A DNA stretch of 64,000 nucleotides from Escherichia coli. GTDB taxonomy: Bacteria > Pseudomonadota > Gammaproteobacteria > Enterobacterales > Enterobacteriaceae. The position numbers and the translations under genes are program-made. Below, piece by piece: positions 231-64,000 of this stretch. Within the stretch, counting starts at the first letter, position 1. Each line of letters begins with the position of its first letter. The notes beneath the pieces are model-generated. The model was not told where the DNA came from. It did no database searches and saw nothing but the letters and a program-made list of their open reading frames with translations. The stretch lies in the NCBI RefSeq assembly GCF_001677475.2, contig NZ_CP015229.1; one strand, written 5' to 3'.

Positions 231-971
231 TTATTCGGCCTTATTACCTTTATTCTGCTGCTCTATAGAAGCCAGAATCCCGCGCAGGATATTCAATTCC
301 TGGCTTTCCGGGCGCGCACGGGTAAACAGACGGCGCAATTTATTCATCACCTGCCCCGGATGGTTTTCACGAATAAAACCGGTTGCCAGCAGCGTTTGTT
401 CCAGATGACCATAAAAACGCTCCAGATCATCGACCAGCGGATACGGCGTCTCTTCATGCTCGACCTGCTCACCATTTTCCTGAGTTGCCAGCCAGGCCAT
501 GCGCACTTCATAGGCAATAACCTGAACCGCCATCGCCAGATTCAGCGAACTGTATTCCGGGTTAGCGGCAATCGCGACATGATAATGGCATTTCTGCAAC
601 TCTTCATTGGTCAAGCCGACGCGCTCGCGACCAAAAACCAGCGCCACCGGGGTATTTGCCGCTTCAGCGACGCTTTTCAGACCGCATTCGCGCGGGTCGA
701 GCATCGGCCACGGCAGCGTGCGGGAGCGTGCGCTGGTGCCCACCACCAGGCTACAACCGGCTAACGCTTCGTCGAGCGTATCGACGATGTGAGCATTACC
801 AATCACATCGCTGGCCCCTGCTGCCAAGGCAATCGCCTGGGAGTCAGGTTTCACCAGTGGATTAACCAGCCACAGATTGGTTAATCCCATTGTTTTCATG
901 GCACGGGCAACAGAACCCATATTGCCGGTGTGTGACGTCTCCACCAGCACAATTCGAATATTTTGCAGCAT
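231..971 (-). CDS. trmJ: tRNA (cytidine/uridine-2'-O-)-methyltransferase TrmJ (SpoU/TrmH family)
   Basis: 246-aa ORF recognised as TrmJ; position upstream of suhB matches K-12 gene order. Confidence 0.9.
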
Positions 972-1089: not shown

Positions 1090-1893
1090 ATGCATCCGAT
1101 GCTGAACATCGCCGTGCGCGCAGCGCGCAAGGCGGGTAATTTAATTGCCAAAAACTATGAAACCCCGGACGCTGTAGAAGCGAGCCAGAAAGGCAGTAAC
1201 GACTTCGTGACCAACGTAGATAAAGCTGCCGAAGCGGTGATTATCGACACGATTCGTAAATCTTACCCACAGCACACCATCATCACCGAAGAAAGCGGTG
1301 AACTTGAAGGTACTGATCAGGATGTTCAATGGGTTATCGATCCACTGGATGGCACTACCAACTTTATCAAACGTCTGCCGCACTTCGCGGTATCTATCGC
1401 CGTTCGTATCAAAGGCCGCACTGAAGTTGCTGTGGTTTACGATCCTATGCGTAACGAACTGTTCACCGCCACTCGCGGTCAGGGCGCACAGCTGAACGGC
1501 TACCGTCTGCGCGGCAGCACCGCTCGCGATCTCGACGGTACTATTCTGGCGACCGGCTTCCCGTTCAAAGCAAAACAGTACGCCACCACCTACATCAACA
1601 TCGTCGGCAAACTGTTCAACGAATGTGCAGACTTCCGTCGTACCGGTTCTGCGGCGCTGGATCTGGCTTACGTTGCTGCGGGTCGCGTTGACGGTTTCTT
1701 TGAAATCGGTCTGCGTCCGTGGGATTTCGCGGCAGGCGAGCTGCTGGTTCGTGAAGCGGGCGGCATCGTCAGCGACTTCACCGGTGGTCATAACTACATG
1801 CTGACCGGTAACATCGTTGCTGGTAACCCGCGCGTTGTTAAAGCCATGCTGGCGAACATGCGTGACGAGTTAAGCGACGCCCTGAAGCGTTAA
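1090..1893 (+). CDS. suhB: Inositol monophosphatase SuhB
   Basis: 267-aa ORF with IMPase motifs (DPLDGT, WDFAAG). Confidence 0.93.
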   Translation: MHPMLNIAVRAARKAGNLIAKNYETPDAVEASQKGSNDFVTNVDKAAEAVIIDTIRKSYPQHTIITEESGELEGTDQDVQWVIDPLDGTTNFIKRLPHFAVSIAVRIKGRTEVAVVYDPMRNELFTATRGQGAQLNGYRLRGSTARDLDGTILATGFPFKAKQYATTYINIVGKLFNECADFRRTGSAALDLAYVAAGRVDGFFEIGLRPWDFAAGELLVREAGGIVSDFTGGHNYMLTGNIVAGNPRVVKAMLANMRDELSDALKR

Positions 1894-28669: not shown

Positions 28670-28853
28670 CAACAAAGCCGGGAATTACCCGGCTTTGTTA
28701 TGGAATAAGGCGGTGCCTAACTCGACGTTTCGCCCGATGGTTGATATAGCTACGCTGATATCAGAAGTTGGACGGCAGGCACCTTGTTGTGCGTCATTCG
28801 AATTTTATGTAGCACGTCCCGAAGGGGCTGACATAAGTCGGTGAATGAGCCAC
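28670..28853 (-). ncRNA. glmY: GlmY small RNA
   Basis: Minus-strand read AGUGGCUCAUUCACCGACUUAUGUCAGCCCCUUCGGGACGUGC... ending in terminator hairpin GCCGGGUAAUUCCCGGC plus U-tract; recognised as GlmY. Confidence 0.8.
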
Positions 28854-28865
28854 TGCTTACTATTA

Positions 28866-29187: not shown

Positions 29188-32100
29188 TTACCCCAACTGC
29201 TTACGTGCATTGCGGAAAATGCGCATCCATGGGCCATCCTCGCCCCAGTTTTCCGGATGCCAGGAGTTGCTGACAGTACGGAAAACACGTTCCGGGTGCG
29301 GCATCATAATGGTGACTCGACCGCTTTCAGTCGTGACCGCCGTAATACCGTTCGGAGAACCGTTCGGGTTAGCCGGGTAGGTTTCAGTGACTTTGCCGAA
29401 GTTATCGACATAGCGCAGTGCCACCAGCCCTTTGCTTTCCAGTGCCGCCAGATGCGCCGCATCACGCACTTCCACGCGCCCTTCACCATGAGAGACAGCA
29501 ATCGGCATTTGCGAGCCCACCATCCCCTGCAACAGCAGCGACGGGCTTTGGGTCACTTCAACCAGGCTGAAACGCGCTTCAAAGCGATCGGAGGTATTGC
29601 GCACAAAACGTGGCCACAACTCACTACCTGGGATCAGTTCACGCAGATTAGACATCATCTGGCAACCGTTACATACCCCCAGCGCCAGCGTTTGCGAACG
29701 GTGGAAGAAGGTTGCAAACTCATCGCGTACACGGTCATTGAACAGGATAGACTTCGCCCAACCTTCACCGGCACCCAGCACATCACCGTAGGAGAAACCA
29801 CCGCACGCGACCAGGGCGTGGAAATCCTCCAGTCCCGTGCGTCCAGTCAGCAGGTCGCTCATATGCACGTCGATAGCATCAAAGCCCGCACGGTGGAAAG
29901 CTGCCGCCATTTCAACATGCGAGTTCACGCCCTGCTCACGCAGTACGGCAACTTTCGGACGTGCGCCAGTGGCAATATACGGTGCTGCCACATCTTCGTT
30001 GATATCGAACGACAGTTTTACATTCAGGCCCGGATCGGCGTCGTTAGATTTCGCCTGATGCTCCTGATCGGCACACTCCGGGTTGTCACGCAGGCGCTGC
30101 ATCTGCCAGGTAGTTTCTGCCCACCAGACACGCAACGTAGTGCGGCTTTCGCTGAATACAGTCTGCCCGTTGGCGGTAATCACAAAACGGTCACCGGAAA
30201 CCGCCTGGCCAACATAATGGACGCAATCAGCAAGCCCATGCTTTGCCAGTACCGCTTCAACTGCTTCACGGTCAGCGGCTCGAACCTGAATCACCGCCCC
30301 CAGTTCTTCGTTAAACAGCGCCGCCAGGCGATCGTCACCCAGTGTGGCGATATTCGCTTCAATGCCGCAATGACCGGCAAACGCCATTTCCGCCAGCGTT
30401 ACCAGCAGGCCGCCATCAGAGCGGTCGTGATACGCCAGCAGCTTACGCTGTGCAACCAGCGCCTGAATCGCGTCATAGAAGCCTTTCAGTTGCGCGACGT
30501 CGCGTACATCTGCCGGTTTGTCGCCAAGCTGACGATAAACCTGCGCCAGCGCCGTTGCGCCCAGCGCGTTATTGCCTTTGCCCAAATCAATCAGCAGCAG
30601 TGCGTTATCTTCGGTAGAAAGCTGCGGCGTGATGGTGTGACGTACATCTTCCACGCGGGCAAATGCGGAAATCACCAGCGACAGCGGCGACGTCATTTCG
30701 CGCTCTTCGTTACCTTCCTGCCAGCGGGTTTTCATCGACATAGAGTCTTTACCCACCGGGATCGTCAGGCCCAGCGCCGGACAAAGCTCTTCGCCCACAG
30801 CTTTAACGGCTTCATACAGGCCCGCATCTTCGCCTGGATGACCTGCCGCTGCCATCCAGTTCGCGGAAAGTTTAATGCGTTTGATATCGCCAATCTGTGT
30901 TGCGGCAATATTGGTTAACGCTTCACCGACCGCCAGACGGGCAGATGCGGCGAAATCCAGCAGCGCAACCGGCGCACGCTCGCCAATTGCCATCGCTTCG
31001 CCGTAGTAGCTATCGAGGCTGGCGGTAGTGACCGCGCAGTTAGCGACCGGCACCTGCCACGGACCAACCATCTGATCGCGCGCCACCATGCCGGTTACGC
31101 TGCGGTCACCGATGGTCACCAGGAAAGTTTTCTCTGCCACAGTCGGCAGATGCAGTACGCGTTTCACCGCGTCAGCAATGGTGATCCCTTCACGGGCCAG
31201 CGCATCGCCCTTCGCTTTCAGCGTTTGTACATCGCGGGTCATTTTCGGCGTTTTACCAAGCAGCACGTCCAGCGGCAGATCGATTGGCTGATTATCAAAA
31301 TGACGATCGTGCAGAGAAAGATGCAGTTCTTCAGTCGCTTCACCAATCACCGCGTAGGGTGCGCGTTCACGCTTACACAGTTCGTCAAACAGCGGTAACT
31401 GATCGGCAGCAACCGCCAGCACGTAGCGTTCCTGGGATTCGTTACACCAGATTTCCAGCGGGCTCATGCCCGGTTCGTCGCTCAGAATATCGCGCAGTTC
31501 GAATTTACCGCCGCGCCCGCCGTCGCTCACCAGTTCCGGCATGGCGTTAGAAAGACCGCCTGCGCCAACGTCGTGGATAAACAGGATTGGGTTGGCATCA
31601 CCAAGCTGCCAGCAACGGTCGATCACTTCCTGGCAGCGACGCTCCATCTCCGGGTTGTCGCGCTGTACGGAAGCAAAGTCGAGGTCCGCATCAGACTGAC
31701 CAGATGCCATGGAAGACGCCGCGCCGCCGCCAAGACCGATGTTCATTGCCGGGCCGCCGAGAACGACCAGCTTCGCACCAACGTTGATCTCGCCTTTTTG
31801 TACGTGATCGGCGCGAATGTTGCCGATCCCACCCGCCAGCATGATCGGTTTGTGATAACCGCGCAGCTCTTCGCCATTGTGGCTGTTCACTTTTTCTTCA
31901 TAAGTACGGAAGTAGCCGTTCAGTGCCGGGCGACCAAATTCGTTGTTAAACGCCGCGCCGCCCAGCGGGCCTTCGGTCATGATGTCCAGCGCGGTGACAA
32001 TGCGCTCAGGCTTACCGAAATCTTCTTCCCACGGCTGTTCAAAGCCCGGAATACGCAAGTTGGATACGGAGAAACCGACCAGACCGGCTTTCGGCTTTGC

Positions 32101-33075
32101 GCCACGCCCGGTGGCACCTTCATCGCGGATTTCACCGCCGGAACCGGTCGCCGCGCCCGGCCACGGAGAAATCGCCGTCGGGTGGTTGTGGGTTTCGACT
32201 TTCATCAGAATATGCGCCGGTTCCTGATGGAAATCGTAGCGGCCCGTTTCGTGGTCAGCAAAGTAGCGGCCCACTTCAGACCCTTCCATGACGGCGGCGT
32301 TATCTTTATAAGCAGAGAGAACGTGATCCGGCGTAGTTTCGAAGGTGTTTTTGATCATCTTGAACAGCGATTTCGGCTGCTGTTCACCGTCGATAATCCA
32401 GTCGGCGTTAAAAATTTTGTGGCGGCAGTGCTCAGAGTTCGCCTGAGCGAACATATACAGCTCAATGTCGTTCGGGTTACGACCAAGCTTTGTGAAAGCA
32501 TCCTGCAGATAGTCGATTTCATCTTCCGCCAATGCCAGGCCAAGGCGCAGGTTAGCGTCGATTAGCGCCTGACGGCCCTGCCCCAGCAAATCTACGCTGG
32601 TGACCGGAGTCGGTTGATGGTGTGCAAACAGCTGCTCTGCATCATCTAAAGCAAAAAAGACCGTTTCCATCATGCGGTCGTGCAGTTCAGCGGTAACCTG
32701 CTGCCATTGTTCATTGGTCAGCGTACCGGCTTCTATATAGTAAGCCACGCCGCGCTCAAGGCGGTTAACCTGTTGCAGCCCGCAGTTATGGGCAATATCG
32801 GTCGCTTTCGAAGACCAGGGAGAGATGGTGCCAGGACGCGGGGTCACCAGCAGGAGTTTGCCTTGCGGGGCGTGGCTGGCGAGTGCCGGGCCATATTTCA
32901 GCAGGCGTTCAAGTTGTGCGTGCTCATCATCGTTTAACGGCGCATTGAGGTCAGCAAAATGGACATACTCGGCGTAAATATTGTGAACCGGGAGCCTGGC
33001 AGCCTGAAAACGTGCCAGCAGTTTGTTGATTCGGAATGCCGACAATGCAGGCGAACCACGCAGAATTTCCATCAT
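29188..33075 (-). CDS. purL: Phosphoribosylformylglycinamidine synthase
   Basis: ORF trimmed to [20 protein letters not shown]... (1295 aa); FGAM synthase with C-terminal glutaminase domain. Confidence 0.95.
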
Positions 33076-33152
33076 AAGTCTCTCGTCTTCTAAGCTTTCG
33101 GTGTACCCAAGGGGGGGGAAACGGGCGTCATTATAAAGAATCTGATGCGCTG

Positions 33153-33168
33153 ACGAAACCGTTTGCGT
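33153..33168. promoter_or_regulatory. PurR box upstream of purL
   Basis: ACGAAACCGTTTGCGT (reverse complement ACGCAAACGGTTTCGT) is a near-perfect 16-bp PurR palindrome. Confidence 0.55.
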
Positions 33169-33333
33169 GGAAATAAAATCACCATCGAGAATTAGCAACG
33201 CGTGCCGCCAATGGCTGTAATAAGTTGCCATCTGGCGCAGGTTTACGCAAAATGCCGCTCATTTATGAGTAAACCTTTCACTATTATTACGTTTTTTCAA
33301 GCTGGGACGCGCACGACACAGAGAATTAACTAA

Positions 33334-35435
<2,102 letters not shown>

Positions 35436-38052: not shown

Positions 38053-38128
38053 CGTTGGAATCGTGTGCTGCACAAAATTAAAGTTGTAAAGTGAAAACCC
38101 CCGTTCCTTACCAGTTCGGGGGTTTTAC
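38053..38128 (+). ncRNA. ohsC: Candidate OhsC antisense sRNA (antitoxin of shoB)
   Basis: Plus-strand TTGGAATCGTGTGCTGCAC (38055-38073) matches plus-strand 37806-37824 in the shoB 5' leader at 18 of 19 positions, so a plus-strand transcript would base-pair with the minus-strand shoB mRNA; CATAAT -10-like hexamer at 38041-38046; hairpin at 38094-38126. Boundaries inferred. Confidence 0.45.
38094..38126. terminator. Bidirectional terminator hairpin (acpS operon end and candidate ohsC end)
   Basis: AAAACCCCCG-loop-CGGGGGTTTT with A-tract and T-tract flanks. Confidence 0.6.
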
Positions 38129-38151
38129 TTTATAAAGAGAACGGTATTTTT

Positions 38152-40134: not shown

Positions 40135-41747
<1,613 letters not shown>

Positions 41748-41945
41748 TCAGCACACGAAACAGACCTGATATACATGGCTCTGCTAACTGCTTCGCTGCA
41801 GTTTCAGTTTAGCGGTATATGGGGACCAACGCTGTTTCGTGTGCCGTGGCAACCTGGAGGTGCCAACCTTAAACTTCGGGGGAATATTCTATACACAACG
41901 ACGGGGGATGTCGTTAGCCACGGGAGATTTATCTCATAAATAATT

Positions 41946-42978: not shown

Positions 42979-44778
<1,800 letters not shown>

Positions 44779-44975
44779 AAAGTATGATTATTGTGCCTTA
44801 ATGCCCGGTTAACCAGGCTTTTAGAAGTCGCTGTTCTGAGCTTAACGTCTGTATTAATAGAAACGCCGCATTCTACACTACAACATTGAGGCGAGGAAAT
44901 GTTCATACCGTATGGATTGTGGTATCTGGAAACGTCCTCGCATTTGTTATGCAAAATGCAACAAAGCCAGTGAAA

Positions 44976-45455
44976 TCACTGGCTCGCGTCTTCCGAAGAT
45001 GTTTCAAATCGCACAAGGCCAGGCGGCAATGCCACGCTTAAGATGATCGGTTGCCATTCAGACCGGGCAGCAAACTTTCGAGAGCAGCCACGTGCAATCA
45101 GGAATCCACCAACGCCACCGAGAATCGCACCGCATAATGCTGCAATATCTGAAGCAAAGAGTAGCTGAAATAGTGAAGCGATGAGGAATAGTCCCACCAA
45201 CGGCGACATATAAACCAGTAATGCGGAGCTAAGCAGGCTGCCTTCGGCGATTCCTAATTCTACTTTTTGCCCCGGCACTAACGGCTCATCACAGGGTACG
45301 ACAATGGTATGCGTGGTTTGCGGGCCAAGTTTATTCAACACGCGGCTACCGCAACCGGCGCGTGAAGCGCAGCTGCTGCATGAGGCTTTAACATCACAAC
45401 TGACCAGCGCCTGCCCGTTTTGCCAGGAGACGACGGTAGCCCACTCTTTGATCAT
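44976..45455 (-). CDS. rseC: SoxR-reducing system protein RseC
   Basis: 159 aa. Confidence 0.9.
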   Translation of the reverse strand: MIKEWATVVSWQNGQALVSCDVKASCSSCASRAGCGSRVLNKLGPQTTHTIVVPCDEPLVPGQKVELGIAEGSLLSSALLVYMSPLVGLFLIASLFQLLFASDIAALCGAILGGVGGFLIARGCSRKFAARSEWQPIILSVALPPGLVRFETSSEDASQ

Positions 45456-46408
45456 TGCGCTGCCCCGAACTTAATATTCTCGGCAATGCGTTTCGCCGTT
45501 TGCGGCGGCAGTTCACCGACAATGGTGATTTCGGCGTTATCACGTACGCTTGTACTGACGGTTCTGCGTCCGGTGCGCAACATCTGATCGGTGCTCGATG
45601 GCGTAGCGCGGTTAACGTTTACCGAGAAGCTGAATAATCCGTCGGAATAGAGACGTGATTCGATAGGCATGTTGTCCATCGTCGGTAGCGGACGTCGACT
45701 ACTGGAAACTTCGCTAAAACCCTGTGGCAACCAGGTTGGCGTCCAGCTGAATTTAGCTTTTTCACCTACAGGAACAGAAAGCAACGGCGGCAAATTTGCC
45801 TTCGCCAGCGTCTGCATACTGCTGCTGATATCCTGATTGACGTTAAAAGCAATCACGCGAAATTGTTCCAGCGTTTCACCATCGCGATCAAGGAGATCAA
45901 CCCTCATCGGTAATTTCGATTCAGTGTCCATCCACACGATGTAGCTGTAGCGTGTACCATCTCGGGCAACCACGCGAATGACTTCGCAAAGACGATCAGC
46001 AATACGCGTGCGCCCGACGGAGATAAAGTCGTAGTAAGGAGAAAGGCGTTTGAAATCGGTATAGATGAGCGATGGCAGAGAATCAACAATGTAATCGCCA
46101 TTAAGCGTGAACGGTTCAAGTCCCGGTTCAAAATAGCTGATTTCATTGCCGCGCTGTACCACTTCCCGGCGCGGGCCATCCATTTGCAACAATTGTGCAA
46201 GAGGACGGTTATCGAGGCGTGCATGTCGATAACGCAGAGACTCAACACCCTGTTTATTGATGCTGATGAATGACAGCTCGTAATTCAGTGACTGACTGGC
46301 CAGGTTCATCTGCTGTAATAACGCCCCGGACGCGGGAGTGGCCGAGGCGTTAGCAGAGAATAACAGGCTACCTGTCACTAATGACATGGCAAACCAAAGT
46401 TGCTTCAT
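45452..46408 (-). CDS. rseB: Sigma-E regulatory protein RseB
   Basis: 318 aa with signal peptide. Confidence 0.92.
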   Translation of the reverse strand: MKQLWFAMSLVTGSLLFSANASATPASGALLQQMNLASQSLNYELSFISINKQGVESLRYRHARLDNRPLAQLLQMDGPRREVVQRGNEISYFEPGLEPFTLNGDYIVDSLPSLIYTDFKRLSPYYDFISVGRTRIADRLCEVIRVVARDGTRYSYIVWMDTESKLPMRVDLLDRDGETLEQFRVIAFNVNQDISSSMQTLAKANLPPLLSVPVGEKAKFSWTPTWLPQGFSEVSSSRRPLPTMDNMPIESRLYSDGLFSFSVNVNRATPSSTDQMLRTGRRTVSTSVRDNAEITIVGELPPQTAKRIAENIKFGAAQ

Positions 46409-60203: not shown

Positions 60204-61559
60204 ATGTTGTCAAAATTTAAGCGTAATAAACATCAACAACACCTTGCCCAACTACCCAAGATTTCTCAATCAGTTGATGATGTCGATTTCTTTTACGCTC
60301 CCGCCGACTTCCGGGAGACGCTGCTGGAAAAAATAGCCAGCGCGAAGCAGCGCATTTGCATTGTCGCCCTGTATCTCGAACAGGATGACGGTGGCAAAGG
60401 CATTCTGAACGCGTTGTATGAGGCTAAAAGGCAGCGTCCGGAACTGGATGTGCGGGTGCTGGTCGACTGGCATCGTGCACAACGTGGACGCATTGGCGCT
60501 GCGGCATCTAACACTAACGCTGACTGGTACTGCCGCATGGCGCAGGAAAATCCGGGCGTAGATGTTCCGGTTTATGGCGTTCCAATCAATACCCGTGAAG
60601 CTCTTGGTGTTCTGCACTTTAAAGGCTTTATCATCGACGATAGCGTACTTTATAGCGGTGCCAGCCTGAACGATGTTTACCTGCATCAGCACGATAAATA
60701 TCGCTACGACCGTTATCATCTGATCCGTAACCGTAAGATGTCAGACATTATGTTTGAATGGGTTACACAGAATATTATGAATGGCCGCGGCGTTAATCGT
60801 CTGGATGATGTTAATCGGCCAAAAAGCCCGGAAATCAAGAACGATATTCGTCTGTTCCGCCAGGAGCTGCGTGATGCCGCTTATCATTTCCAGGGCGATG
60901 CCGACAACGATCAGCTTTCCGTAACGCCGCTAGTGGGGCTGGGGAAATCGAGTCTGTTGAACAAGACCATTTTCCATCTTATGCCTTGTGCCGAGCAGAA
61001 ACTAACCATCTGCACACCATATTTCAACCTGCCTGCAATCCTTGTGCGCAATATCATCCAGTTGCTGCGCGAAGGGAAAAAGGTCGAAATTATTGTTGGT
61101 GATAAAACCGCGAACGACTTCTACATTCCGGAAGATGAACCTTTCAAGATAATTGGCGCATTGCCTTATCTCTATGAGATCAATCTGCGTCGTTTCCTGA
61201 GCCGTTTGCAGTATTACGTCAATACTGACCAGCTAGTGGTTCGGTTATGGAAAGATGACGACAACACCTATCACCTGAAAGGGATGTGGGTTGATGATAA
61301 GTGGATGTTGATCACCGGTAATAACCTGAACCCGCGCGCCTGGCGTCTGGATCTGGAAAACGCCATTTTGATCCACGATCCGCAACTTGAGCTTGCACCA
61401 CAGCGAGAGAAAGAACTGGAGCTGATCCGCGAGCATACCACCATCGTTAAGCACTATCGCGATCTGCAAAGTATTGCCGATTATCCGGTGAAGGTTCGTA
61501 AACTCATCCGCCGTTTGCGCCGTATCCGCATCGACCGATTAATTAGCCGCATCCTGTAA
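60204..61559 (+). CDS. pssA: CDP-diacylglycerol--serine O-phosphatidyltransferase
   Basis: 451 aa from the ATG at 60204 (track ORF begins at an upstream in-frame GTG); two PLD-type HKD motifs. Confidence 0.92.
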   Translation: MLSKFKRNKHQQHLAQLPKISQSVDDVDFFYAPADFRETLLEKIASAKQRICIVALYLEQDDGGKGILNALYEAKRQRPELDVRVLVDWHRAQRGRIGAAASNTNADWYCRMAQENPGVDVPVYGVPINTREALGVLHFKGFIIDDSVLYSGASLNDVYLHQHDKYRYDRYHLIRNRKMSDIMFEWVTQNIMNGRGVNRLDDVNRPKSPEIKNDIRLFRQELRDAAYHFQGDADNDQLSVTPLVGLGKSSLLNKTIFHLMPCAEQKLTICTPYFNLPAILVRNIIQLLREGKKVEIIVGDKTANDFYIPEDEPFKIIGALPYLYEINLRRFLSRLQYYVNTDQLVVRLWKDDDNTYHLKGMWVDDKWMLITGNNLNPRAWRLDLENAILIHDPQLELAPQREKELELIREHTTIVKHYRDLQSIADYPVKVRKLIRRLRRIRIDRLISRIL

Positions 61560-61563
61560 TCAC

Positions 61564-61592
61564 AACCCCGTCCTGTACGGGGTTTGTTTTTT
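61564..61592 (+). terminator. Rho-independent terminator of pssA
   Basis: AACCCCGTCCTGTACGGGGTT followed by TGTTTTTT. Confidence 0.7.
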
Positions 61593-61604
61593 GGAGGCCA
61601 CGTT

Positions 61605-61928
61605 TTGCGTATTCTTTTTGTCTGTTCGATATTGTTACTTTCTGGATGCAGCCATATGGCTAACGATAGCTGGAGCGGGCAGGATAAAGCTCAACACTTT
61701 ATCGCTTCGGCGATGCTTTCCGCCGCCGGAAATGAATATTCACAGCATCAGGGGATGAGCCGGGATCGCAGTGCCATGTTTGGAATGATGTTCTCTATCA
61801 GTCTGGGGGCGTCAAAAGAGCTTTGGGATAGCCGCCCGGAAGGGAGCGGCTGGAGCTGGAAGGATTTGGCCTGGGATGTCGCCGGTGCAACTACTGGCTA
61901 TACCGTCTGGCAGTTGGCGCATAATTAA
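61605..61928 (+). CDS. yfiM: Lipoprotein YfiM
   Basis: Signal peptide with lipobox LLSGC; start placed at the TTG 7 nt after GGAGG (107 aa). Start uncertain; the track ORF begins at 61584. Confidence 0.7.
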
Positions 61929-63223
61929 AGGCGCATCCCCTTCCCTTTGCGATGTAGCATCAAAGAAACCAGAAACGCCACCACGGCCATCAAGGTCACA
62001 TACCAGAAGAAGGCTGTTTCCATTCCTATTGATTTCAGCGACAACGCTACATACTCTGCTGAGCCACCAAATATAGCATTGGCGACCGCATATGACAGAC
62101 CAACGCCTAATGCGCGAACCTGTGCCGGGAACATCTCATCCTTCAGTATTCCACTGATTGAAGTATAAAAACTCACTATCAGCAGGGCACACATCACCAG
62201 ACCAAAAGCGGCATAAGGCGAGGAAACGTTTTGCAATGCTGAGAGAATAGGAACGGTAAAAATGGCTGCCAGCGAACCGAAACATAACATTGAGGTACGG
62301 CGACCAATCTTATCCGACAGCGCGCCAATGAGTGGTTGAATAAGCATGAACACAAACAATGCGGCAGTCATAATGCCACTCGCCACGTTGGCATGCATTC
62401 CCGCAGTATTTACCAGATACTTCTGCATATAAGTGGTGAAGGTATAGAAACAAAGGGAGCCCGCAGCGGTAAAACCGAGAACCATGATGAATGCACGGCG
62501 ATTGCGCCATAATCCTTTCAGAGATCCAGCTTCTTTTAAAGCGCGTGTTTCTTGTTGTGAAGTTTCATCTAACTGACGACGTAACCACAATGCCACAACC
62601 GCTAACACAGCTCCTAACGCGAAAGGAATACGCCATCCCCACTCTCTGAGTGCAGCGTCTTCCATGGTGTGTTGTAAAACCACGACAACCAGTAGGGCTA
62701 GCAGTTGTCCGCCGATCAACGTCACATACTGAAATGATGCGTAAAAACCTTTGCGCCCTTCAACGGCAACTTCACTCATATAGGTGGCGCTGGTGCCATA
62801 TTCTCCGCCAACGGATAATCCCTGAAATAAACGCGCGAGAAGCAATAATGCCGGAGCCCACGTACCGATTGTTTCATAACCAGGCAAACAGGCGATTACC
62901 AGTGAGCCGAAACACATCATACACACCGATAGCAGCATCGATTTTTTGCGACCATGTTTATCGGCTATGCGGCCAAATAGCCAACCGCCTATTGGGCGCA
63001 TCAGGAATCCCGCAGCAAAAACACCTGCTGTTTGCAGTAGTTGAGTCGTCGTGTTCCCGGAAGGGAAGAAGATGTGGGCGAAGTAGAGTGAACAGAACGA
63101 GTAGACATAGAAATCGAACCACTCGACCAGATTACCTGAAGAGGCCCCCACAATTGCCCAAATGCGGCGACGAGTATCACTACTTGTCAGTTTGCTGTCT
63201 GCCGTTACAGTACTTTCAGCCAT
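61925..63223 (-). CDS. kgtP: Alpha-ketoglutarate:H+ symporter (MFS)
   Basis: ORF trimmed to [16 protein letters not shown]... (432 aa); 12-TM MFS transporter. Confidence 0.92.
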
Positions 63224-63490
63224 GCCATTATGTCTCCTGCCGTAATCCGATGCTTTTGTCGGTCGCTGTTGTTTATTTTTTTTGGTAAAGAAAATGTTAT
63301 ACATTTGTTGCGCATCATTATGCAACCTTAACCATGAATTTAGTTAGCAGGAAAATGGTTATTGAGGATCTTAACGATAGATTTCTGGTAAGGAGGAAGT
63401 ATGGAAGTGGGCAATTTGGGGAAGCCGTATTCGCTGTTGAATCTGGCTTATGTGGGAGTATAAGACGCGCAGCGTCGCATCAGGCATTTT

Positions 63491-63546
63491 TTTCTGCGCC
63501 AATGCAAAAAGGCCCAGTCTTTCGACTGAGCCTTTCGTTTTATTTG
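63491..63546 (-). terminator. Distal rRNA-operon terminator with a 5S 3'-end remnant
   Basis: Minus-strand AACUGCCAGGCAUCAAAUAAAACGAAAGGCUCAGUCGAAAGACUGGGCCUUUUUGCAUU: a copy of the last nucleotides of 5S rRNA plus a T1-like hairpin. Confidence 0.6.
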
Positions 63547-63667
63547 ATGCCTGGCAGTTTATGGCGGGCGTCCTGCCCGCCACCCTCCGGGCCGTTGCTT
63601 CGCAACGTTCAAATCCGCTCCCGGCGGATTTGTCCTACTCAGGAGAGCGTTCACCGACAAACAACAG

Positions 63668-63712
63668 ATAAAACGAAAGGCCCAGTCTTTCGACTGAGCC
63701 TTTCGTTTTATT
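63668..63712 (-). terminator. Proximal rRNA-operon terminator (T1-like)
   Basis: Minus-strand AAAACGAAAGGCUCAGUCGAAAGACUGGGCCUUUCGUUUUAU immediately 3' of the 5S rRNA. Confidence 0.7.
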
Positions 63713-63714
63713 TG

Positions 63715-63834
63715 ATGCCTGGCAGTTCCCTACTCTCGCATGGGGAGACCCCACACTACCATCGGCGCTACGGCGTTTCACTTCTGAGTTCGGCATGGGG
63801 TCAGGTGGGACCACCGCGCTACGGCCGCCAGGCA
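63715..63834 (-). rRNA. rrfG: 5S ribosomal RNA
   Basis: Minus-strand read UGCCUGGCGGCCGUAGCGCGGUGGUCCCACCUGACCCCAUGCCGAACUCAGAAGUGAAACGCCGUAGCGCCGAUGGUAGUGUGGGGUCUCCCCAUGCGAGAGUAGGGAACUGCCAGGCAU is the 120-nt E. coli 5S sequence; operon identity (rrnG) inferred from kgtP adjacency. Confidence 0.9.
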
Positions 63835-63931
63835 AATTCTGTTTTATCAACACGTCATGTTCTGACCTGTCGATTTAATCTGTATCAGGCTGAAAATCTT
63901 CTCTCATCCGCCAAAACAGCTTCGGCGTTGT

Positions 63932-64000
63932 AAGGTTAAGCCTCACGGTTCATTAGTACCGGTTAGCTCAACGCATCGCTGCGCTTACACACCCGGCCTA
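63932..64000 (-). rRNA. rrlG: 23S ribosomal RNA, 3' end (truncated by the window edge)
   Basis: Minus-strand ...UAGGCCGGGUGUGUAAGCGCAGCGAUGCGUUGAGCUAACCGGUACUAAUGAACCGUGAGGCUUAACCUU matches the 23S 3' terminus. Confidence 0.8.

Follow-up and report, generated by a model that had tools for sequence, protein, structure and literature searches.

The window analysed here, a 64-kb stretch of Escherichia coli DNA, runs out within a ribosomal RNA operon whose 5S gene is followed by a hairpin, a spacer, a second copy of the 5S terminus and another hairpin. Does such a repeat record the loss of a second 5S gene, or does it belong to an element of another kind? The comparisons presented below indicate that the region is very probably the rrnG-equivalent 3' end with a complete rrB-type cassette of the tRNA-linked repeat (TLR) family lying between two intrinsic terminators.

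The operon end and its repeated parts

On its minus strand the window closes with 290 nt of an rRNA operon, the 23S gene of which runs past the window end, and the 5S gene is matched by the Rfam family RF00001 with 92.8 bits at 63717-63832 (-). The gene order rrlG-rrfG-kgtP-yfiM-pssA reproduces the synteny of K-12 rrnG, with both flanks matching, and by its neighbours kgtP, yfiM and pssA the locus is the rrnG equivalent. Two window segments, taken from the flanking genes, show about 97.7% identity to the nearest among 5426 complete E. coli genomes. The terminators insulate kgtP, the next gene downstream, from rrn transcription. A palindromic element directly behind the distal terminator, REP-like by the REP consensus, is common to the distal flanks of K-12 rrnG and rrnA; in Rfam it finds only a chance-level match to naRNA4 (13.6 bits, E = 5.8). 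Neither ARAGORN nor Rfam revealed a distal tRNA gene or remnant of the sort found in rrnC, rrnD and rrnH: the former reported no tRNA gene in 63300-64000 or in the whole window, and the latter no tRNA match at E-values up to 10 in 63380-63730. The weak small RNA matches that Rfam returned for the same interval (MicC, BSnc120 and STnc40) are driven by hairpins. The parts of the region are listed in Table 1.

Table 1. Features of the rrnG-equivalent operon end and its surroundings (window coordinates)
Feature	Position	Strand	Basis
5S rRNA gene of the rrnG-equivalent operon	63715-63834	-	mature ends read from the sequence
Proximal copy of the 52-nt repeat (last 13 nt of 5S, CAAAT, AAAACGAAAGGCTCAGTCGAAAGACTGGGCCTTT)	63676-63727	-	repeat and pattern searches
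Terminator T1 (20-bp stem, GAAA loop, interrupted U-tract UUUCGUUUUAU)	63668-63711	-	terminator scan
Predicted long read-through RNA, 173 nt, from 5S+4 to 3 nt past the distal 18-mer	63539-63711	-	analogy with RrB
TLR body, rrB-type small RNA sequence with five GGA motifs	63560-63667	-	identity to K-12 rrnB
18-nt TLR hallmark repeat AACTGCCAGGCATCAAAT	63542-63559	-	pattern search and sequence comparison
Distal terminator T1'	63506-63541	-	sequence reading, pattern search and comparison
REP-like palindromic element directly 3' of T1'	63458-63485	-	sequence comparison
kgtP (alpha-ketoglutarate permease), next downstream gene	61925-63223	-	ORF and annotation under matches

A repeat search revealed an exact 52-nt direct repeat on the minus strand (63508-63559 and 63676-63727), in which the final 13 nt of 5S are followed by CAAAT and then by a 34-nt terminator core. 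The preliminary description had reported a hairpin sequence occurring twice downstream of the 5S gene, with a short exact copy of the 5S 3' terminus ahead of the distal hairpin, and both observations hold. The 31-mer AAAACGAAAGGCTCAGTCGAAAGACTGGGCC has exactly two sites in the 64-kb window (63511-63541 and 63679-63709 on the minus strand; 0.00 matches expected in shuffles), which belong to two tandem intrinsic terminators. The 13-mer AACTGCCAGGCAT, absent from shuffled sequence, likewise has exactly two sites in the window, at 63715-63727 (-), where it is the true 5S 3' end, and at 63547-63559 (-), where it is the copy. The spacing had been put at about 180 bp; measured from start to start it is 168 bp. 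The two pieces had also been described as separate, and although each is indeed repeated exactly, they form one contiguous block of 52 nt. Nested in this block is the 18-mer AACTGCCAGGCATCAAAT (63710-63727 and 63542-63559, minus strand), which consists of the copied 5S 3' end and 5 nt bearing the RNase E site of 5S 3' maturation. The order of parts is thus 5S, T1, a 116-nt structured spacer, the 18-nt copy of the 5S end including CAAAT, the second hairpin and a U5 tract.

The two copies part directly after GGGCCTTT, the proximal one continuing with CGTTTTATCTG and the distal one with TTGCATTGG, and owing to this divergence the proximal stem measures 20 bp and the distal stem about 13 bp. T1 is identical to K-12 rrnB T1, folds at -33.9 kcal/mol (z = -9.5) and places the long hairpin AAAACGAAAGGCTCAGTCGAAAGACTGGGCCTTTCGTTTT directly after 5S, as in the rrnB-type dual terminator. 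The distal terminator, here called T1', combines the T1 5' flank and core hairpin GGCTCAGTC-GAAA-GACTGGGCC with a T2-type U5 tract and the flank TTTTTGCATTGG; it is without the lower part of the T1 stem. In predicted stability T1' matches T2 and not T1, its fold of -23.2 kcal/mol standing against predicted values of -24.1 for K-12 rrnG T2, -22.7 for rrnB T2 and -33.9 for T1. A simple terminator scan that flagged T1 left T1' unflagged, probably since the maximal stem takes up three of the five U residues of the U-tract.

The distal terminator of K-12 rrnA, rrnB and rrnD is T2, that is, the hairpin GGCCATCC-N4-GGATGGCC followed by U5. The window does not have the hairpin GGCCATCCTGACGGATGGCC with its U5 after the 18-nt repeat; in its place stands GGCTCAGTCGAAAGACTGGGCC, with the T1 core, and the likeness to T2 is confined to the position of the distal terminator, its U5 tract and the GC(A/G)TT flank. 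From GGGCCTTT onward the sequence is of the T2 type (TTTTTGCATTGGCGCAG, then the REP-like element) and equals the distal flank of K-12 rrnG and rrnA. It is the T1-type distal hairpin together with its 5' flank that extends the repeat to 52 nt, as against 18 nt.

The TLR cassette and its predicted read-through RNA

The window region was compared with the 3' ends of all seven K-12 rrn operons. The interval from 5S+1 to the second CAAAT (63542-63714) is identical to the T1-rrB interval of K-12 rrnB in 173 of 173 nt, differs from K-12 rrnA at one position (172/173) and from the interval following rrfF in K-12 rrnD at six (167/173). The same score of 167/173 (96.5%) is obtained with a contig of another genus, L014, whose mobB-mobA-srkA-dsbA coding flank shows about 77% identity to E. 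coli. The rrA, rrB and rrF sequences were placed in the TLR family by Stenum et al. in 2021 (PMC8144298). According to the literature cited there, this family was first described by Egan and Landy in 1978, the catalogue of Rudd (1999) comprises 22 copies at ten K-12 loci, and rrn dual terminators have been described since 1981. The hallmark of a TLR is that the element closes with 18-19 nt copied from the 3' end of the stable RNA before it (PMC8144298). The TLR sequences that we compared differ at no more than 6 of 173 positions, and for conservation of structure we rely on the same study, which finds the sequence and the predicted structure preserved across 12 or more enterobacterial genera and includes a LocARNA analysis of 30 species (PMC8144298).

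The features of the family are found in the window. TLRs lie directly downstream of a tRNA or rRNA gene in the same operon; here the cassette starts 1 nt after 5S, and no promoter-like site was found in a scan between the two. The last 18-19 bp of a TLR equal the 3' end of the upstream stable RNA, and in the window this identity reaches 52 nt. Homology extends to the described members at rrnB, rrnA, rrnD and rttR. The spacer core GAACGTTGCGAAGCAACGGCCCGGAGGGTGGCGGGCAG aligns with tyrT-linked rttR with a score of 29, the maximum in shuffles being 26, and none of 2000 shuffles reaches it. The RtT family (RF00391), whose model is built on tyrT-type repeats, is the only Rfam family touching the rttR-like stretch of the spacer, and its match at 63585-63628 (-) stays below the gathering score (17 bits, E = 0.81, against 45). 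The TLR body contains predicted hairpins at 63615-63627, 63593-63607 and 63563-63581 (-); fold z-scores are -3.3 for the body after T1, with three to four hairpins in the spacer, and -10.7 for the whole region with both terminators.

Like rttR downstream of tyrV, the window element shares a transcript with the stable RNA gene directly 5' of it and has the core CGTTGC..GCAACG-rCCCGrAGGG followed by a GC hairpin. It repeats the end of 5S and not that of a tRNA; its likeness to rttR is confined to about 40 nt, and it has one TLR copy, while the tyrT locus holds several in tandem. The closest relative is the T1-rrB-T2 end of K-12 rrnB, alike in all 173 nt, in the order of parts and in the predicted RNase E sites. 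That cassette adjoins murB, however, whereas the window cassette at rrnG adjoins kgtP, and it has the T2 distal hairpin GGCCATCCTGACGGATGGCC with an 18-nt repeat, in contrast to the T1-core hairpin GGCTCAGTCGAAAGACTGGGCC and 52-nt repeat of the window. The rrnB T1T2 pair is the classic terminator of cloning vectors. Judged by its sequence, the window cassette is a fourth sort of copy of the known TLR/rrB element, at a locus where K-12 has none; what is new is its presence at rrnG relative to K-12 and the rare allele of the distal hairpin, while the kind of feature is already known.

In K-12, RrA, RrB and RrF are made by read-through of T1 (PMC8144298). S1 mapping of the 173-nt RrB put its 5' terminus at the RNase E site located 3 nt downstream of 5S and its 3' terminus 3 nt beyond the repeated 18-mer; RNAs of 173 and about 115 nt were detected, the short form with a half-life of about 2.5 min, and RrA, RrB and RrF bind Hfq and CsrA in vitro (PMC8144298). 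The efficiency of rrnB T1 is given as 87% and that of T2 as 100% (Orosz 1991, as cited in PMC8144298). Deletion or overexpression of rrA, rrB and rrF gave modest, partly paradoxical phenotypes (PMC8144298), so that a regulatory role of the RNA is no more than putative.

Read-through, processing and binding of Hfq and CsrA are expected in the window by analogy with the identical K-12 sequence. If T1 is as leaky as in rrnB (about 87% efficient), roughly one transcript in eight would go on into the cassette. The repeated 18-mer would recreate the RNase E site of 5S 3' maturation, and a recreated site implies a second RNase E cut after the distal repeat, besides the one at 5S+3. Cleavage at 5S+3 and past the distal 18-mer would free an RNA of about 173 nt, which would then be trimmed to about 115 nt. 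This short-lived RNA would, by the K-12 analogy, bind Hfq and CsrA, with a level that follows rRNA transcription, and T1' would end the remaining transcripts before kgtP.

Alleles of the operon end and competing explanations

The K-12 rrnG operon has neither T1 nor TLR, and a T2-type hairpin directly follows its 5S gene. A TLR adjoining kgtP is found in only 10 of 5426 complete E. coli genomes; given these few carriers and its absence from K-12, the cassette is dispensable at the rrnG locus. One of these carriers, strain T2, has a T1-TLR-T2 arrangement at rrnG, that is, the cassette with a T2 distal hairpin. The window shares with K-12 rrnG and with rrnG of strain T2 the chromosomal position and the downstream flank GCATTGGCGCAGAAAAAAATGCCTGATGCG (REP-like) before kgtP; it differs from K-12, which is without T1 and TLR, and from strain T2, which keeps the T2 hairpin where the window has T1'. 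In E. coli EC28, rrnG ends in a single T1-core terminator directly after 5S, within the same kgtP-proximal haplotype as in the window, and single T1-core terminators directly after 5S also occur in Enterobacter and Raoultella.

Distal hairpins with the T2 core were found in K-12 rrnA, rrnB and rrnD, in rrnG of strain T2 and in rrnE of BLR(DE3). Distal hairpins with the T1 core are present elsewhere: with U5, after T1, TLR and 18-mer, at rrnB of AR_0061 and three other E. coli genomes; at rrnE of SE11, N3 and at least 12 others, O103/O121 strains among them; and in L014, a human-gut metagenome contig, at the locus equivalent to rrnA in another genus. A TLR lies at rrnE in both BLR(DE3) and SE11, while K-12 rrnE is without one. 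The alleles of AR_0061, SE11, N3 and L014 resemble that of the window in having T1, TLR, 18-mer and a hairpin of the form GGC[C/T]C[A/G]GTC-GRAA-GACTGGGCC; the tail behind it is TTTTTGC (U5) in the E. coli alleles and TTTTGTTTTTG in L014. In these other T1-core alleles the distal and proximal hairpins differ at two or more positions, or the 5' flank is of the T2 type (TAAGCAGAAGG), whereas the window allele, at rrnG, has two copies that agree in all 52 nt.

The exact distal junction (TLR, identical T1 core and GCATTGG flank) had no contiguous match in the 5426 complete E. coli genomes. Among GTDB representatives the 29-mer of hairpin plus TTTTTGC had three matches, all in single terminators directly after 5S in Enterobacter and Raoultella, and metagenome contigs yielded one match, of related but different architecture (L014). 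A search for a single hybrid rrnG terminator, with the window minus its 168 bp as the query, gave no exact match and brought up the EC28 allele. In K-12 rrnD, rrfF and the end of the TLR carry the same G-to-A variant of the 18-mer, which indicates that the two 18-mer copies are coupled, by function or by conversion. At the level of sequence, rrn 3' ends are mosaics of an 18-mer, a T1- or T2-core hairpin and a locus-specific flank, with or without a T1+TLR unit.

Against this background the origin proposed in the preliminary description can be judged. There the region was seen as a 5S-plus-terminator unit partly duplicated and then decayed; in its full form this reading takes the whole unit to have been duplicated in tandem, the second 5S gene to have degenerated and the spacer to be a 5S pseudogene, left as a neutral scar of rearrangement. 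The exact repeat does take in the 5S terminus, its period of 168 nt is close to the sum of 5S (120 nt) and T1 (about 47 nt), the start of the sequence behind T1 (UGUUUGUCGG) resembles the 5S 5' end (UGCCUGGCGG) and pairs with the 5S' fragment in the MFE fold, and a genuine 5S duplication exists in K-12 rrnD (rrfD-thrV-rrfF). The body of the spacer tells otherwise. In a gapless alignment set at the 168-nt period, over the 107 positions before the shared 13-mer, spacer and 5S agree at 30, the shuffle mean being 29.0 (p = 0.45); on neither strand do the local alignment scores between them exceed the shuffle mean, and Rfam gives no second RF00001 match at E <= 10. Pairing between the 5' and 3' parts of the spacer is no better than in shuffles, 22% of which are at least as stable. 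The 116-nt spacer is therefore unlike 5S, with no 5S-body homology beyond the terminal 13 nt, and it is strongly conserved (173/173 with K-12 rrnB, 167/173 across genera), while in its core it matches an element unrelated to 5S, the tyrT TLR, which closes with the 3' end of tRNA-Tyr. In rrnD, too, 5S sequence is repeated downstream of 5S in one operon, but rrfF is a full, functional 5S gene, whereas the window repeats just 13 nt. Since the duplicated 3' end is a conserved hallmark of TLRs, it is no relic of a decayed 5S copy; the pseudo-5S reading is rejected as largely refuted, and we regard it as very unlikely. A related idea, that the terminal helix of the TLR mimics helix I of 5S, was also discarded: the helix is present in the MFE fold, but its duplex energy of -9.8 kcal/mol is equalled by 22% of shuffles. 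An analogous 10-bp helix is predicted in rttR, the whole fold of which is not better than shuffles (z = -1.1).

A plainer account, to which we give a small but real chance, is that the region is only a fail-safe double terminator that halts heavy rrn transcription before kgtP, TLRs being passive repeats, the spacer RNA having no function and its conservation reflecting concerted evolution among rrn operons. T1 alone passes about 13% of transcripts and T2 stops about 100% (Orosz 1991, as cited in PMC8144298), deleting or overexpressing rrA/B/F has modest effects that do not agree with one another (PMC8144298), the presence of the cassette varies by operon and strain, which is compatible with dispensability, and single terminators suffice at rrnG of both EC28 and K-12. 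A mere back-up terminator, however, needs neither a conserved 116-nt spacer nor an 18-nt processing repeat, which in rrnD covaries with the 5S allele beside it. At least 12 genera have kept both the sequence and the predicted structure (PMC8144298), the unit retains 96.5% identity next to coding flanks of about 77%, and defined processed RNAs with specific Hfq and CsrA binding have been shown in K-12 (PMC8144298). Least probable of all is that the T1-type distal hairpin and the 52-nt repeat are an assembly artefact, produced by mis-joined reads from rrn ends. Such ends are multi-copy, near-identical and often confused by assemblers; the exact junction was not found in the 5426 E. coli genomes, the GTDB representatives or the metagenome contigs, and the sole independent contig with an identical KgtP (Logan) begins inside the repeat and so tells nothing about the junction. 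Yet the combination of T1, TLR and a T1-core hairpin with U5 recurs at rrnB and at rrnE of independent complete genomes as well as on a metagenome contig of another genus, the junction sequence is free of anomaly, and both flanks are syntenic with rrnG-kgtP. It is the existence of these independent parallels that makes an artefact unlikely.

Origin of the allele and its significance

How the rrB-type cassette came to stand before a T1-type hairpin at rrnG is a separate question. The preliminary description saw the footprint of a past rearrangement. This stands in so far as the 52-nt identity suggests recombination or gene conversion between terminator modules; it does not stand for the repeated 5S end, which is a conserved hallmark of TLRs and no relic. 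The T1' allele most likely arose through recombination or gene conversion between interchangeable rrn terminator modules, as the comparison of alleles suggests, with the 18-nt repeat of the 5S end serving as homology for the exchange. By one possible route, T1 and TLR from an rrnB-like donor would have joined a resident single T1-core terminator, such as that of EC28 rrnG, via the 18-nt repeat; by another, a T2 hairpin 168 bp downstream would have been converted by T1.

A bolder proposal, which we offer tentatively and consider less probable than not, is that the T1+TLR unit is a cassette mobilised by recombination, in which the 18-mer is both an RNase E signal and a portable homology handle. 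With such a handle the unit could be pasted before any terminator that follows a 5S gene, or excised again. If true, this would explain the patchy spread of the unit over rrnA, B, D, E and G among strains as well as its near-identity across lineages and genera, and the perfect 52-nt repeat of the window would mark a very recent conversion or insertion at rrnG. An allele with such a repeat should then lose the cassette at measurable frequency, and this loss would lead to cell-to-cell heterogeneity in an rRNA-coupled RNA that binds CsrA and Hfq.

For basic biology as such the locus carries little weight, dual terminators, the repeated 5S terminus and the inter-terminator RNA (2021) having already been described. 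It adds that the rrB-type cassette and the distal terminator are polymorphic modules, the former found at locus A, B, D, E or G and the latter with a T1 or T2 core, and this polymorphism qualifies the textbook claim that dual terminators are present in three of seven operons. In strength of conservation the unit is about on a level with rRNA (96.5% identity, against 77% for its neighbours), which argues for a functional spacer. A copy of the 3' end of a stable RNA downstream of its gene signals a TLR and no decayed gene. The natural T1-TLR-T1' allele offers a ready-made test of how the identity of the second terminator bears on the output of RrB-type RNA.

Divergence and RNA gene content of the window

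At positions 61000-63500 and 30000-34000, no genome among 5426 complete E. coli genomes exceeds about 97.7% identity to the window, and nearly all of them fall in the 95-99% band. On sequence identity, the window seems to derive from an Escherichia lineage lying beyond the sampled diversity of E. coli. The search for tRNA genes across the 64 kb found none. The remaining RNA families in the window, listed as Rfam matches exceeding the gathering score (GlmY, OhsC, rncO, and AsrC), are all ordinary at such an E. coli chromosomal region.

Positions of the RNA families, the antisense ORF, and the additional Raoultella hairpins
Feature	Location	Strand	Basis or remark
GlmY	window 28707-28854	-	Rfam, over gathering score
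OhsC	window 38054-38131	+	Rfam, over gathering score
rncO	window 41663-41877	-	Rfam, over gathering score
AsrC	window 44660-45491	+	Rfam, over gathering score
YfiS-like ORF, 20 codons, MEVGNLGKPYSLLNLAYVGV	window 63401-63463	+	18/20 residues shared with YfiS, an annotated small protein of K-12
Raoultella opposite-strand hairpin	L010, ~1225-1270		
Raoultella opposite-strand hairpin	L011, ~405-445		

Antisense ORF and strandedness of the distal terminator

The intergenic region between kgtP and the 5S gene holds the YfiS-like ORF in antisense, overlapping the REP-like element, and its transcript would meet the distal terminator hairpin (T1') head-on. When read on the + strand, T1' is likewise a hairpin, followed by UUUCGUUUUAUUU, which makes a role as a bidirectional terminator possible. 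Both Raoultella loci have a second hairpin about 150 bp 3' of the 5S terminator; it lies on the opposite strand and has the near-identical core GGGCCCAGTCTTCGACTGGGCCC. It may be the terminator of a convergent gene, made from the same module.

Terminator and repeat alleles at other rrn operons

In rrnB of E. coli AR_0061 (locus positions 311-352), the loop of the proximal terminator (T1) is TTTC, not GAAA, on a perfect GGCCCAGTC/GACTGGGCC stem. The appearance is that of a near-palindromic hairpin that has undergone flipping, or repair against its own complementary sequence. At rrnE, strains BLR(DE3), SE11, and N3 carry T1, the tRNA-linked repeat (TLR), the distal terminator, and REP, followed directly by yjaB, whereas K-12 has a different single terminator and then yjaA instead of yjaB; judged from these arrangements, the rrnE 3' end is the site of a replacement polymorphism. 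In K-12 rrnD, the G-to-A variant CTGCCAGACATCAAAT of the 18-nt repeat is present at the end of both rrfF, the second 5S gene, and the adjacent TLR, indicating that the two copies co-vary within the operon.

Predicted pairing of stable-RNA 3' ends with terminator flanks and TLRs

The last 13 nt of the 5S gene can pair with sequence just 3' of T1, within 35-nt arms that are 80% complementary (window 63653-63726, - strand), and GCATTGGCGCAG, downstream of T1', can pair with the copied 5S 3' terminus (5S' fragment; window 63490-63560, - strand). Hence, both terminators are embedded in longer imperfect hairpins that include 5S-end sequence. The tyrT TLR copies of K-12 (tyrT-tyrV-rttR, L013, locus 380-1340, - strand) carry GGGGAAGGAU, for which the predicted fold shows perfect pairing with AUCCUUCCCC, the repeated 3' end of tRNA-Tyr. 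The equivalent of this tyrT-type terminal helix in the rrn TLR is without statistical support. The predicted tyrT pairing suggests that a terminal helix formed with the duplicated 3' end may be a general trait of TLRs.
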